Part shown: positions 1,002 through 5,912 of the stretch, piece after piece
Position numbering within the stretch: the stretch's first letter is position 1
How the letters are laid out: each line of letters starts with the position of its first letter
DNA from: Desulfobacteraceae bacterium
GTDB lineage: Bacteria > Desulfobacterota > Desulfobacteria > Desulfobacterales > Desulfobacteraceae
Length of the DNA: 24,601 nt
NCBI GenBank assembly: GCA_030638935.1
Contig: DAOWDR010000532.1
Span: 1 to 24,601, forward strand
Reading direction: 5' to 3'
Program-made: the position numbers and the translations under genes
The notes under the pieces: generated by a model
The model's input: the letters and a program-made list of their open reading frames with translations, nothing else
Databases searched by the model: none
What the model was told of the DNA's origin: nothing

Positions 1002-1543
1002 TGGAACGTTCAAGACTTGTTTTTTCAGGCTCAGGCGGACAGGGCGTGATTACTGCGGCCATTATACTTGCAAAGGCTGCTGCTATTTTTGAAGGGAAAA
1101 ATGCCATCCAGTCCCAGAGTTACGGGGCCGCTGCAAGGGGGGGAGCTACCAGGAGCGATATTCTGATTGCAGATACTGAGATTAATTTCCCCAAGGTGAT
1201 CCAGCCCAATATCCTGGTCAGCCTGACCCAGGAAAGTTATAATAAATTTTCTCCGATTCTCCGGCCGGGCGGTCTTTTATTGATGGATTCAAAATATGTG
1301 ACCATTGAAAAAAAGGTGGATGCAAAACATATTGCTTTGCCCATGTATGAGACGGTGATGGAAAAAATCAAAAAACCCATTGTCTTTAACATCTGTATGC
1401 TGGGTGCCCTCATCGGAATTTCCCAGTTGGTAAAACCCGAATCCATCCTCAAGGTTTTGGAAACCACCATTCCCAAGGATTTTATGGACATGAACAAAAA
1501 AGCCCTGGATCTGGGTATGCAAATGGGTGAAGCCCAGCGATAA
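1001..1543 (+). CDS. korC: 2-oxoacid:ferredoxin oxidoreductase gamma subunit
   Basis: N-terminal GSGGQGVIT and QSYGAAARGG motifs, C-terminal MNKKALDLG; TAATG overlap with the beta gene (translational coupling). Confidence 0.92.
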   Translation: MERSRLVFSGSGGQGVITAAIILAKAAAIFEGKNAIQSQSYGAAARGGATRSDILIADTEINFPKVIQPNILVSLTQESYNKFSPILRPGGLLLMDSKYVTIEKKVDAKHIALPMYETVMEKIKKPIVFNICMLGALIGISQLVKPESILKVLETTIPKDFMDMNKKALDLGMQMGEAQR

Positions 1544-1565
1544 AGCCGTATATAATTGTACTATG

Positions 1566-1606
1566 ACGCCCGGTGCAAATTTGCACCGGGCGTTTTTTAT
1601 TTTTTA
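1566..1606 (+). terminator. Intrinsic terminator, likely also used by the convergent gene
   Basis: Perfect 28-bp palindrome ACGCCCGGTGCAAA/TTTGCACCGGGCGT (1566-1593) followed by a T-rich run, 22 nt after the gamma stop. Confidence 0.85.
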
Positions 1607-1890
1607 GTTTTATTAACCGGGCCTTGCCCAGTCCCTGCTGCCGGAAACAGCTCCTCTATATTGAGTCCCTTTATCTTTTTAAGACAGCTTTCCAGTGCTT
1701 CCTGTTCAGAGCTGCCGGCCCCCTGGTGTTCCGGTTTGGCAACAATATTAACCAGGTTTGGAACGGCAATATAGTCCCCTGCCAGATTTCCCTGAATTTT
1801 CTGGTGAACATCAATATAAATCATCCTGCCTTTTCTGATCAAATTATACCGGGTAATCCGGGTTAAAATGTCATTTACGTGAAGTTCCAT
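1597..1890 (-). CDS. Hypothetical protein, 97 aa (start moved from 1974 to 1890)
   Basis: AAGGAG lies 5 nt upstream of the ATG at 1890 (MELHVNDILTRITRY...). Protein-like composition; ends at the terminator. Confidence 0.7.
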   Translation of the reverse strand: MELHVNDILTRITRYNLIRKGRMIYIDVHQKIQGNLAGDYIAVPNLVNIVAKPEHQGAGSSEQEALESCLKKIKGLNIEELFPAAGTGQGPVNKTKK

Positions 1891-1982
1891 AGCATCTCCT
1901 TTTTTTAAGTTACAACTGCCACACTTCCCCATTGTTTTCAACATCTTTCTTCTTAACCTTTCCCTCTTCCCCAAAAAAAATA

Positions 1983-2010
1983 TTGATCAAAAAATAAATT
2001 GGAGTAGAAT
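1983..2010 (+). promoter_or_regulatory. Candidate sigma70 promoter of the xsc'-'tpa-ald unit
   Basis: TTGATC (1983-1988), 16 bp spacer, TAGAAT (2005-2010), about 95 nt upstream of the ATG at 2106. Confidence 0.5.
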
Positions 2011-2025
2011 TTTCACTTGACGGCT

Positions 2026-2039
2026 TTCAGATATCTGAA
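2026..2039. promoter_or_regulatory. Perfect 14-bp palindrome, candidate repressor operator
   Basis: TTCAGATATCTGAA is self-complementary and sits just downstream of the candidate -10. Confidence 0.4.
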
Positions 2040-2105
2040 TTCCAACACCTATTATCTGCAAATACTGCGGATACTAATCCAATTAATCGTGGAGGTAACA
2101 ATACA

Positions 2106-2231
2106 ATGAAAATGACCACTGAAGAGGCCTTTATAAAAGTTCTCCAAATGCATGGGATTGAACACGCCTTTGGCATTATCGGTTCGGCAATCCGACTTGT
2201 CTGCCACAGTGGTCAAACAAGAAGTCTATGA
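2106..2231 (+). pseudogene. xsc: 5' remnant (28 codons) of sulfoacetaldehyde acetyltransferase, running out of frame into the tpa remnant
   Basis: GGAGG at 2091-2095, then MKMTTEEAFIKVLQMHGIEHAFGIIGSA (2106-2189), which I recognise as the Xsc N-terminus. It is followed by unrelated IRLVCHSGQTRSL and TGA at 2229-2231. Not in the ORF track. Confidence 0.85.
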
Positions 2232-2714
2232 TGCTTTTTTAAATGACCCGACAGATCCCGACACACGGCTCAATTATTTCAGGGATATCTCCACTTACGG
2301 AGGATGTACATCTGCCATGACAGCCGCCCTGGAAAGCACCCGGATAATTGAAGAGGAAAACCTGCTGGACAACAGCCTTAAAATAGGGGATTATCTAAAT
2401 GAAAAACTTGCAATGTTAAAAAAATACAATGTTGTGGGCGATGTCAGGGGGCAAGGGACTCTTTGCCGGCATTGAGTTTGTAAGGACAGGGCAACCAAGG
2501 AACCTGTTTTTGAAGATCAAATGGCAGAGCTCATGGGAAATGTCATGGTTCAAAACGTGATTGTTGGAAAAACCAATTCCAGTTTTCACGGACTGAACAA
2601 ATGAACTTTGCCCCCTGCCTGATCATCACCAAAGGACAGGTGGATACCATTGTTACTGCGGTGGCAACTGCCATCGAAAAAACATTTGGACAAAAACTTC
2701 AAACCATTACTTAA
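2197..2714 (+). pseudogene. tpa: 3' remnant of a class III aminotransferase, most likely taurine:pyruvate aminotransferase, with 3 frameshifts
   Basis: Reconstructed across frames: LSATVVKQEVYDAF...YFRDISTYGGCTSAMTAALES...GDVRGQG / LFAGIEFV / DRATKEP...GKTNSSFHGLN / MNFAPCLIITKGQVDTIV...*. The class III fold is clear. YFRDIST(F/Y)GGC is what I recall from Tpa. No start codon of its own, and the PLP-lysine (AKG) segment is absent. Confidence 0.8.
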
Positions 2715-2731
2715 ATTTAAGGAGAGATCTC

Positions 2732-3844
2732 ATGCTTGTTGGAATCTTAAAAGAAATTAAAGTTTTAGAGAAAAGAGTTTGCATGACACCTGCAGGTGTT
2801 GTTGCCATGAAAAACAACGGTCATGACGTCCTGGTTGAAACAACTGCAGGCGCAGGAGCGGGTTTTACAGATGCAGACTATGTTGCTGCCGGTGCCACCA
2901 TTGCAAAAACCCCTGCACAGATCTATGAAAAATGCGAGATGATAATGCATGTAAAAGAGCCCCAGCCCTCTGAATATGATCACATCAGAGAAGATCAGAT
3001 TGTTTTCACCTATCTGCATCTTGCTGCGGATGAGCAGCAAACCCGCGCTTTGATCAAAAGCAAATCCATTGACATTGCCTATGAAACCATTGAAAAAGAA
3101 AATGGTTCCCTTCCCCTGCTCCTTCCCATGAGTGAAGTGGCAGGGCGTATGGCAACCCAGGAAGCTGCTAAATACCTTGAAATGCCCCAGGGCGGAATGG
3201 GTGTTCTTCTGGGTGGCGTAACCGGTGTTGAACCTGCCACAGTGGTTGTTATCGGTGGTGGTGTTGTGGGTATCAATGCAGCCAAAATGGCCTGTGGTCT
3301 GGGGGCAAAAGTATATATTCTGGACACAAACCTGGAAAGACTGGCCTATCTGGATGATGTCATGCCTGCCAACTGCTTCCCCATCATGTCCAATGCAGCC
3401 ATCCTTGAAGAACTGGTCACCAGGGCAGATGCTGTCATTGGTGCGGTTCTTGTTGCCGGTGCCAAGGCCCCCAAACTGCTGACCCGTAAGATGCTTAAGA
3501 AAATGAAAAAAGGTTCTGTGATTGTGGATGTTGCCATTGACCAGGGAGGTTGTTTTGAGACATCCAAAGCCACCACCCATGCAGACCCCACCTATGAAGT
3601 GGATGGAGTTATTCACTATTGCGTTGCCAATATGCCGGGGGCTGTTGCCAGAACTTCAACCGCAGCCCTGACCAACGCCACCCTTCCCTATGCCATTGAA
3701 ATTGCCAACAAAGGATGGAAAAAAGCCATGCAGGATAACAGGGAAATCAAACTGGGTGCCAATGTAATTAAAGGCAAGGTAACCTTTAAAGCGGTTGCCG
3801 ATGCCATTGGTCTGGATTACACACCAATTGAAAATTTTCTTTAA
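2732..3844 (+). CDS. ald: Alanine dehydrogenase
   Basis: 370 aa; N-terminal VGILKEIK...RV; catalytic HVKEP and TYLHLA; Rossmann IGGGVVG; DVAIDQGG and YCVANMPG; AAGGAG RBS. Confidence 0.96.
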   Translation: MLVGILKEIKVLEKRVCMTPAGVVAMKNNGHDVLVETTAGAGAGFTDADYVAAGATIAKTPAQIYEKCEMIMHVKEPQPSEYDHIREDQIVFTYLHLAADEQQTRALIKSKSIDIAYETIEKENGSLPLLLPMSEVAGRMATQEAAKYLEMPQGGMGVLLGGVTGVEPATVVVIGGGVVGINAAKMACGLGAKVYILDTNLERLAYLDDVMPANCFPIMSNAAILEELVTRADAVIGAVLVAGAKAPKLLTRKMLKKMKKGSVIVDVAIDQGGCFETSKATTHADPTYEVDGVIHYCVANMPGAVARTSTAALTNATLPYAIEIANKGWKKAMQDNREIKLGANVIKGKVTFKAVADAIGLDYTPIENFL

Positions 3845-3854
3845 TCAAAACTGA

Positions 3855-3892
3855 AAAGGTTCTGGTTTTTGTTTAAAAAAATCAGAACCTTT
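3855..3892. terminator. Bidirectional intrinsic terminator between ald and the selenoprotein gene
   Basis: AAAGGTTCTG (3855-3864) pairs with CAGAACCTTT (3883-3892), extended inward by T/A runs; located between convergent stops. Confidence 0.7.
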
Positions 3893-3930
3893 CTTAATAT
3901 CTGTAAAAACTCATAGAAAAGAGTATGGGA

Positions 3931-4263
3931 TTACAATGCCCCATAGATCATATCATTGTATCCAATAAAAAAGGCATTCTTTGTCTTTACGGCCGGTGCC
4001 CGAAGATTTCCAGACCGACCCATGGAGGCCTTTAAAATTTCTTCCTTGTGTTCCTCATCAGGCCCAAGGCAAAGAACTTTTTTGCCCTTTCCAATATAGA
4101 CCCTCGGCCTTGTCTGCATAAATTCCCAGGCCATTTCCCGGTCAATTTTCTCTTTTCTGGCATCGGATATATCCTTGGGCCGTATCCCCTTTTGCTCAAA
4201 ATACATTTGAGCTTTTTTACAGGATACTCAGCCTTTCCGAATATAGGCCCATTCAATGTCCAT
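3931..4263 (-). CDS. ArsC/Spx-like thioredoxin-fold selenoprotein, 110 aa, Sec at codon 12 (UxxC)
   Basis: AGGAGG, 4 nt, then ATG at 4263: MDIEWAYIRKG-TGA(4230-4228)-VSCKKAQMYFEQKG...GRSGNLRAP.... The ORF track starts at 4206, which cuts off the redox motif and has no RBS. A SECIS-like hairpin follows the TGA. Confidence 0.88.
4182..4227 (-). promoter_or_regulatory. Candidate bacterial SECIS element
   Basis: mRNA directly after UGA: GUAUCC-UGUAAAAAA-GCUCAAA-UGUAU-UUUGAGC-AAAAGG-GGAUAC. This gives a 6-bp lower stem, a 7-bp upper stem and a 5-nt loop with G in second position. Confidence 0.75.
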
Positions 4264-4299
4264 ACATCCTCCTTCTGGGAAAATTTAATTGGGTAAAAA

Positions 4300-4314
4300 A
4301 CAAAACTATTGCCA
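4300..4314 (-). promoter_or_regulatory. Possible sigma54 promoter for the selenoprotein gene
   Basis: TGGCAATAGTTTTGT has correct -24/-12 spacing, but GT replaces the conserved GC. Confidence 0.25.
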
Positions 4315-4346
4315 TGTCCAAAGAGCATCCAGGGACAAAAAAAGGG

Positions 4347-5912
4347 CTAACACTTTCGTTTTCGCCCATGGAGGGTAAATGTTTTTACCACAAACTCCCT
4401 GAATTCCCATATATAATCAATGGTTTTCTGGTTCATGGAATGGGCCTTGCTATCCCAGTTCACATAAATCATTGAGATGATCTTCCGATCAACAAATACA
4501 GGAAAAACGGCAAAACCAGAAGATTGCTCATTTTTTCCAAACCGTTCCATATACCAGGAAGGGATCTTTTTTTTGTATTTTTTCCCGTGGATGTCACTGA
4601 CAATGGTATCACTTTTTTTCAGAACAGCGCTGTTAAATATATCAAGGCTGTTCTCCAGTTTGAATGTAAAGCCCTTAAGCAATTCCTGTGAATTATCCCC
4701 TTTGGCAAACCGGGCATCCATTGTCTGGGTTTCCTTTTTTTTAATGGCAATGCAGACCTGGTTGAAATAAAAACTTTGAAAAAGGATACCCACGATATTG
4801 GTAAAAATTTCATGGATACTGAGTTGGCTGTCCAGATTTTCCTGTAATTGTTTTAAACCTGCATTGAGGCTGTCCATATTTTTTATACCCGAAGATCTTG
4901 TTGTCTTTCCTGGATCTGGATCTACATTTAGGAGGGCTGCATGTTTAATCATCTTGTCCCGGGAGGTTTTGCCCAGTTCCAAAGCCTTTGACATGCCAAT
5001 CTTCAGGATTCCTTCATATTTGCCGGTAATATCCATTACCTGTCCAATTACCTGATCATGGCCCTTGTCCAAGGGAATGTCGCACATTTCCCGGGTAAAG
5101 GCACAGGCATACCGGTGACGATTTCCTTCACTGATCCCCTCCCCCTTCACATCAAAATTTGTCACCGGCCGGGTTGCATTGACGATATTTTCCGGCAAAT
5201 GGAGTTTTAAGGCCACAAGCCTGCCCAAATCACTATAGGAAAGCCCTAGTACGGATTTTGAAGCCGCCTGCAGGGAATGCTTGCCATCATCCATGGCAAG
5301 CTCAATTTGGATATATTTATCCGGGGCAAACAATGCCACAAGGTACTCACCCAAATCATAGATCATGGCGGAAATCTGGAGAGCATCTGCATCTTCATAA
5401 CCGCCCTCAAGGGCAATCTGCCTTGCCATGATGCTCCTTTGAAGTCCTTTTAACGCTTTATCCCTTAAAATGTCGGCATTGGCAAGGCCTGTCATCATTT
5501 CATAAATCTTTAAACCGGCGGCTGCCGACCGGACCTCATCGGTGCCCAGAATGATCATGGCCTCTGAAATGGTTGAGATCCCTTTGCTTGAAAAATGGCG
5601 ATAAAAAGATGAATTTACCAATTTAAGGACCTTTGAGGTTAATGCCATATCCTTTAGGATCACATCTGCGATATCGTTGGCCGAGGAATATTTCATGGTC
5701 AAGATTTTATTCACATTGCTGACCTGGCGAGAAAAGGACAAAAACGAATCCCGGGCCATCATTTTTTTAAAAATTGAATTTACAAAAAGGCTGTAATCAG
5801 AAGCGTCTGACTGAGTTTCCGCAACATCTTTGTCCCCGGCTTCCCGGCCCAGGGCCGGCAGGCAAATCGCATCCAATTCTATACCCGCATGGGGGGTATC
5901 CGTTGCATCCAT
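4347..5912 (-). CDS. HDOD-domain signalling protein with a C-terminal GAF-like domain, 521 aa
   Basis: HDOD signature IADVILKDMALTSKVLKLVNSSFY...STISEAMIILG...AMIYDLG. C-terminal GAF-like part ends FAVFPVFVDRKIISMIYVNWD. GGAG lies upstream of the ATG at 5912; the track start (TTG 5933) is less likely. Confidence 0.85.
   Translation of the reverse strand: MDATDTPHAGIELDAICLPALGREAGDKDVAETQSDASDYSLFVNSIFKKMMARDSFLSFSRQVSNVNKILTMKYSSANDIADVILKDMALTSKVLKLVNSSFYRHFSSKGISTISEAMIILGTDEVRSAAAGLKIYEMMTGLANADILRDKALKGLQRSIMARQIALEGGYEDADALQISAMIYDLGEYLVALFAPDKYIQIELAMDDGKHSLQAASKSVLGLSYSDLGRLVALKLHLPENIVNATRPVTNFDVKGEGISEGNRHRYACAFTREMCDIPLDKGHDQVIGQVMDITGKYEGILKIGMSKALELGKTSRDKMIKHAALLNVDPDPGKTTRSSGIKNMDSLNAGLKQLQENLDSQLSIHEIFTNIVGILFQSFYFNQVCIAIKKKETQTMDARFAKGDNSQELLKGFTFKLENSLDIFNSAVLKKSDTIVSDIHGKKYKKKIPSWYMERFGKNEQSSGFAVFPVFVDRKIISMIYVNWDSKAHSMNQKTIDYIWEFREFVVKTFTLHGRKRKC

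Follow-up and report, generated by a model that had tools for sequence, protein, structure and literature searches.

Tpa converts taurine and pyruvate to sulfoacetaldehyde and alanine, Ald regenerates the pyruvate, and Xsc converts sulfoacetaldehyde to acetyl-phosphate and sulfite. Taurine respiration by Tpa, Ald and Xsc together with DsrAB has been established in Taurinivorans muris LT0009 (PMC10507020). The Xsc of an anaerobe was first sequenced from Desulfonispora thiosulfatigenes (Denger et al., 2001, as cited in PMC10507020). Bilophila wadsworthia uses a Tpa-SarD-IslAB route, in which desulfonation proceeds via isethionate and a glycyl radical lyase (PMC10507020).

The locus described here lies in a window of 24,601 nucleotides, which is the whole of one contig of a 4.17-Mb metagenome-assembled genome (MAG G000; 756 contigs, 84% complete, 6% contamination) of a marine Desulfobacteraceae bacterium. 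It is very probably the dead remnant of an xsc-tpa-ald operon for taurine desulfonation. The closest described system is that of T. muris, also in Desulfobacterota, in which the same three enzymes feed sulfite to DsrAB (PMC10507020); the intact relatives of the present locus encode all three adjacently. The two differ in that xsc and tpa are destroyed here, in that the host is a marine member of Desulfobacteraceae and not a gut member of Desulfovibrionaceae, and in that no taurine transporter or regulator lies beside the cassette in the window. The first step, Tpa with recycling by Ald, is common to this locus and the B. wadsworthia route; no IslA-like enzyme as used in that route was recognised in G000. 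The known biochemistry is unchanged by the finding. The locus was compared with eight genomes of the same genus (G001-G008), all uncultured Desulfobacteraceae MAGs, and with the contigs that a second, independent assembler (Logan) had produced from public runs. Run X1, a cold-seep metagenome in which 75% of the sampled words were present, is the probable source of the MAG. Among the further runs, X2 belongs to another study, X6 is from a hydrothermal vent and X8 is an RNA library.

The beginning of xsc is retained at 2106-2191 (+) as codons 1-28 plus 2 nt. It is preceded by a ribosome-binding site, GGAGG at 2091-2095 (+), which stands 10 nt before the ATG at 2106 and is conserved upstream of xsc in most relatives, with variants in G003 and G005. 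In a profile search, 2106-2228 matched the Xsc families NF005713 (sulfoacetaldehyde acetyltransferase; E 6.4e-11) and TIGR03457 (E 4e-9). The match is limited to the N-terminus (residues 1-29 on profile positions 1-32) and scores 35-41 bits against cut-offs of 620 (NF005713) and 676 (TIGR03457), whereas the orthologue in G001 reaches 1000 and 904 bits, respectively. The DNA of the stub is 82-93% identical to the corresponding 86 nt at the 5' end of xsc in the xsc-carrying relatives of the genus, and the identity always ends at 2191. By position and by sequence it is an orthologous remnant, and the genes upstream and downstream are the same in G001. What remains is 5% of the gene and none of its cofactor-binding domains. 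A pair of genes for the beta and gamma subunits of a 2-oxoacid:ferredoxin oxidoreductase (177-1543) lies 5' of a small ORF and the stub. From the xsc start codon a chimeric ORF of 41 codons (2106-2231, +) runs to a TGA within the remnant of tpa, with no function implied, and the called 107-aa ORF at 2152-2475 crosses the junction between the two remnants and is an artefact.

The remnant of tpa occupies 2197-2714 (+) and comprises codons 301-466 of the intact 466-aa Tpa of G001 plus a run-on of seven codons, as aligned with seven relatives. When translated with X at the frame breaks, 2197-2711 matched positions 291-449 of the 451 of NF005812 (E 1.1e-32) and positions 268-402 of the 403 of PF00202, and thus has the C-terminal domain of a class III aminotransferase of the Tpa type. 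The codon of the PLP-binding lysine, K292 in the numbering of G001 and nine residues before the breakpoint, is within the deleted part; the motif around this lysine, MAKGL, aligns with the lysine motif of PDB 3n5m. The reading frame of the tail changes three times, by an additional G in the run 2447-2451, by the loss of 1 nt after 2483 and by the loss of 4 nt (TATC) after 2600. Logan contigs of X1 agree with the two losses, though at a depth of 2.4-2.7. The additional G is probably an error of assembly or consensus in the MAG, since both X1 contigs, like all relatives, read four Gs where the window has five. The ancestral stop codon has been mutated as well (T>C at 2691), and the CAA at 2691-2693 in place of the TAA of the relatives lets the last frame continue to a TAA at 2712-2714. 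In a relative-rate count over the tail, 104 columns were otherwise invariant, and the window had 6 private replacements among them, against 0-9 in the relatives; the lack of a clear excess fits a young pseudogene and says nothing beyond that. Elsewhere on the contig, the other long ORFs that were scanned, up to 3 kb in length, gave complete family matches without breakage, so the indels are local to the xsc-tpa stretch. An Rfam scan of the whole window gave no matches.

A full xsc-tpa-ald cassette is present in seven of the eight genomes of the genus, with Xsc scores of 851-915 bits against the cut-off of 676; in G007, ald is the only one of the three genes present. The intact cassette consists of xsc (592 aa), a 116-nt spacer with nothing else in it, tpa (466 aa) and ald. 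Contig C102 of G001 carries orfX (-), xsc (911-2689), tpa (2806-4206), ald (4263-5375), an ArsC-like gene (-) and an HDOD gene (-), which is the gene order of the window, and the G001 cassette sits in the same flanks. The window aligns with G001 up to 2191 and again from 2198, and between these points 2,710 nt of G001 face 6 nt of the window. The left anchor is 2191 in G001, G002, G003, G005 and G008 alike and the alignment resumes at 2195-2200; G004 and G006 have matching breakpoint ends on split contigs. Where both sides are in register on one contig (G001, copy a of G002, and G003), 2,706-2,710 nt face 4-6 nt of the window, and the net shortfall is 2,700-2,706 nt (2,704 nt against G001). 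Relative to G001, the window lacks all of xsc from codon 29, the spacer, and the first 300 codons of tpa. The original prediction, made from the window alone, is largely borne out by these comparisons. It had described 28 Xsc codons behind a ribosome-binding site (with the match ending at 2189, where the DNA match extends to 2191), the 107-aa ORF as a chimera, an intact ald downstream, and a loss of at least about 2.5 kb that took most of xsc together with the half of tpa that holds the PLP lysine, and it had expected close relatives to carry the full gene set in synteny. Its single-frame tail of about 170 codons holds as to the class III aminotransferase homology and fails as to the frame.

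Taurine is the putative substrate of the intact pathway. This assignment is drawn from the xsc-tpa-ald context, from the pathway of T. muris (PMC10507020) and from automatic names in IMG, where proteins 80-87% identical to the G001 Tpa are labelled "taurine-pyruvate aminotransferase". The specificity for taurine and pyruvate (EC 2.6.1.77) is likewise suggested by this context and these names, and the intact G001 Tpa itself scores 478 bits on NF005812, just below the cut-off of 488. On contig C531, G000 has a dsrA whose product exceeds its cut-off at 599 bits, next to dsrB; it thus has the DsrAB on which dissimilatory taurine (sulfite) respiration depends; the organism could have respired the sulfite released by the pathway. 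The assembled part of G000 has no second xsc, the best other thiamine-diphosphate enzyme being 27% identical to Xsc, and no second tpa, the best other aminotransferase being 35% identical to Tpa. Loss of taurine use in the source strain, as originally proposed, is probable: the assembly offers no second xsc, tpa or IslA-like enzyme, and this is not proof, since the MAG is 84% complete and two relatives, G002 and G003, each carry two full copies of xsc. The scar could be real and taurine still be used, through a second xsc-tpa pair or another desulfonation route in the unassembled 16%. The duplicated xsc of G002 and G003 speaks for such a reserve, as do cassettes at other sites in several genomes of the genus and two or three glycyl radical enzymes of G000 that have no equivalog assignment, one of which adjoins a GntR-type regulator. 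Retention is nonetheless unlikely, as the best alternatives in G000 are so distant from Xsc and Tpa and as these unassigned enzymes are not specifically IslA-like when set against 7kq3 and 5ymr. Glycyl radical enzymes are found on five contigs of G000 (C513, C525, C328, C397 and C416), and include a trans-4-hydroxy-L-proline dehydratase split over two contig ends; all of them resemble other glycyl radical enzymes at least as closely as they do the isethionate sulfite-lyases 7kq3 and 5ymr.

The junction between the remnants of xsc and tpa (2192-2200, +) is compound. The window reads GGCAAT-CCGAC-TTGTCTGCC, in which CCGAC (2192-2196) equals xsc nt 98-102 and TTGT (2197-2200) is an altered CTGT. 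In xsc, GGCAAT is followed after 11 nt by CCGAC and CTGT, and codon 301 of tpa likewise starts with CTGT; this microhomology is thus common to Leu35 of xsc and Leu301 of tpa. When 997-1007 (11 nt) and 1013-3705 (2,693 nt) are deleted from the G001 locus, 35 of the 36 bases of window 2181-2216 are reproduced, and the sole mismatch is the C>T at 2197. Given this reconstruction and the match of CCGAC to the bases just before CTGT in xsc, the scar is read as a large microhomology-mediated deletion plus a small one of 11 nt, which is likelier than one event with filler. The single deletion that was originally proposed therefore stands as to the large loss and not as one clean event, since the junction calls for either the second deletion or a filler of 6 untemplated nt (CCGACT). 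A single event with filler has simplicity in its favour, and blastn does leave 4-6 bases unaligned between the anchors. It is, however, a distinctly unlikely account, as the supposed filler CCGAC is identical to the 5 nt directly before CTGT in xsc, at a distance of 11 nt past the apparent left breakpoint, where a random 5-mer would match about once in 1000, as two deletions fit 35 of 36 nt, and as small deletions demonstrably accumulate at this locus.

One such lesion lies upstream of xsc. Relatives have CTTGACA, 16 nt and TATATC there, within a conserved inverted repeat, CTGATATCTGAT-N9-ATCAGATATC, which overlaps the -10-like box in most of the genus (about 790-830 of the G001 locus). The window retains a -35-like TTGACG (2017-2022) and a 12-nt palindrome, TCAGATATCTGA (2027-2038), together a remnant of the putative promoter and operator at 2017-2038 (+), and lacks 23 nt after 2026 that hold one copy of the repeat and the spacer with the -10-like TATAT. 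A strain in X2, 97-98% identical, retains these 23 nt (TCAGATATCTGATATATTACACA), and a contig of X6 probably carries them as well, being a net 23 nt longer across the stretch. The loss looks like slippage between 12-nt direct repeats. Judged from consensus and conservation, the repeat is likely the operator for a regulator of the cassette, and the loss may have disabled the promoter. In a consensus scan for promoters and terminators, all promoter-like sites were weak, and no terminator-like site came up from the xsc stub to ald.

Downstream of the remnants, ald (alanine dehydrogenase, 370 aa; 2732-3844, +) is intact behind an AGGAG at 2720-2724. The protein scores 484.3 bits on TIGR00518 against a cut-off of 391.85, over residues 1-368 of 370, and is thus a full-length member of the family. 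The gene is 81-87% identical in DNA to the cassette-linked ald of the relatives and has no frame-breaking indel. With two confirmed indels in the 518 nt of the tail, ald, with its 1,113 nt, should have about four if it were as unconstrained as the tail; the Poisson probability of seeing none is about 0.014. By this estimate of our own from indel counts, ald is most likely still under selection.

The events at the locus can be put together as follows. A deletion of 2,693 nt between the two CTGT microhomologies would have placed xsc codon 34 directly before tpa codon 301 and removed the thiamine-diphosphate domains of Xsc along with the PLP-lysine half of Tpa. The same stretch also took small deletions, before or after the large one: 23 nt between the 12-nt direct repeats of the putative promoter and operator, 11 nt, as reconstructed, in what is left of xsc, and losses of 1 nt and 4 nt in the tail of tpa, whose stop codon has gone as well. 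The ald gene has escaped all of these lesions and is presumably still used. Taken alone, the large deletion would produce an in-frame fusion of 200 codons, Xsc(1-34)::Tpa(301-466); the 11-nt loss breaks the frame of this fusion, so that only the 41-codon ORF remains. It is conceivable that a fusion of this kind, made from a strong promoter and ribosome-binding site, was wasteful or harmful and that selection favoured the later lesions for silencing it while ald was kept expressed. Such a course is quite improbable; the locus, with losses of 23, 11, 2,693, 1 and 4 nt and of a stop codon, is a case of multi-hit, ordinary pseudogene decay.

The junction is present in the sampled DNA. A Logan contig of X1 with 609 nt equals window 1737-2345 without a single difference, spanning both the junction and the promoter deletion, and it matches the flanks in depth (5.7). 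Of the 60-mer around the junction (2165-2224), five 31-mers were sampled, and X1 is the only run in which they occur. All direct support for the junction comes from one run, at a depth of only about 5.7 and probably from the MAG's own reads. As the independently assembled contig crosses the junction exactly, the misassembly against which the original prediction had warned does not apply. That the junction is a chimera of assembly or binning and that xsc and tpa are really intact is highly improbable: the MAG is in 756 contigs with 6% contamination, its coverage is low and one error of assembly, if not more, is probable in the window (five Gs for four at 2447), but the identical contig has the depth of its flanks, junction-specific 31-mers exist in X1, and xsc and tpa have only 4 nt in common and no repeat able to mislead a k-mer assembler.

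Contigs from other studies document the intact state. Those of X2 and X6, 97-98% identical to the flanks and ald of the window, leave it at 2188-2191 and enter xsc (...GATGCCGATTTCCGACCTG...; ...GATGCCGATTTCCGACCTGTTTCC...). At 2198 an X6 contig emerges from tpa sequence (...CCAAGGGGTTGGCAAGTTCCTATGAACCCC) that encodes the lysine motif AKGLASSY, and an X2 contig of 1,809 nt has 769 nt upstream of 2198 that are unlike the window. Both runs have the ancestral state at 2483 and 2600, free of the 1-nt and 4-nt deletions, and the frames of the tail are unbroken in X2, X6 and X8. A contig of the RNA library X8, about 91% identical and probably from another species, passes from 2080-2191 into intact xsc. 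The lesions are thus confined to the source population, on a scale of divergence that lies within a species. Because contigs this similar, from conspecific populations, retain intact genes in other studies, and with the junction words in X1 only, the loss of xsc and tpa is recent and strain-level, in line with the recent loss that had been proposed. An intact locus of the same species was also sought with the window's Ald in JGI metagenome contigs, where the best match was only 92% identical and none was therefore conspecific, and among the best 120 relatives of the G001 Tpa none was near-identical to the tail.

The placement of the cassette varies within the genus. In G008 (contig C225, 3523-3678) and G002 (contig C279, 3886-3914), the flanks of the window are joined by 20-155 nt, as at an empty site. 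The cassette of these two genomes lies elsewhere; G002, like G003, has two copies, and one copy in G002 adjoins an AgcS-family amino-acid carrier. The cassette is a presence/absence polymorphism in the genus, which suggests that it is mobile or has been lost repeatedly. The Xsc proteins of these Desulfobacteraceae are 75-80% identical to those of Rhodobacterales and other Alphaproteobacteria. Such closeness is unusual between phyla and may reflect a horizontal transfer of xsc.

The locus documents, base by base, how one population of a sulfate reducer, marine and uncultured, is losing an operon for organosulfonate respiration that conspecific populations elsewhere retain. Taken with the patchy distribution of cassette sites in the genus, this loss indicates that taurine use in these Desulfobacteraceae would be a strain-level, dispensable trait. 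It follows that fragments annotated as "xsc" or "tpa" in MAGs are not proof of the pathway, a warning that also rests on the chimeric 107-aa ORF that ORF callers yield at the scar.

Two neighbouring genes can be noted. A gene for an ArsC-family (seleno)protein lies at 3931-4263 (-), where the called ORF covers 3931-4206 and its match to NF041106 (75.7 bits) does not begin until profile position 19; the late start fits an in-frame TGA, possibly for selenocysteine, farther upstream. On the other side, divergent from xsc, a conserved ORF of 97 aa at 1600-1890 (-) has its own GGAGA site. It matched no Pfam or NCBIfam family, and in the protein atlas fell only into "hypothetical protein" clusters of Thermodesulfobacteriota. 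The ORF is retained even in the genomes with the empty site, and contigs of the RNA library cover 1706-1876.
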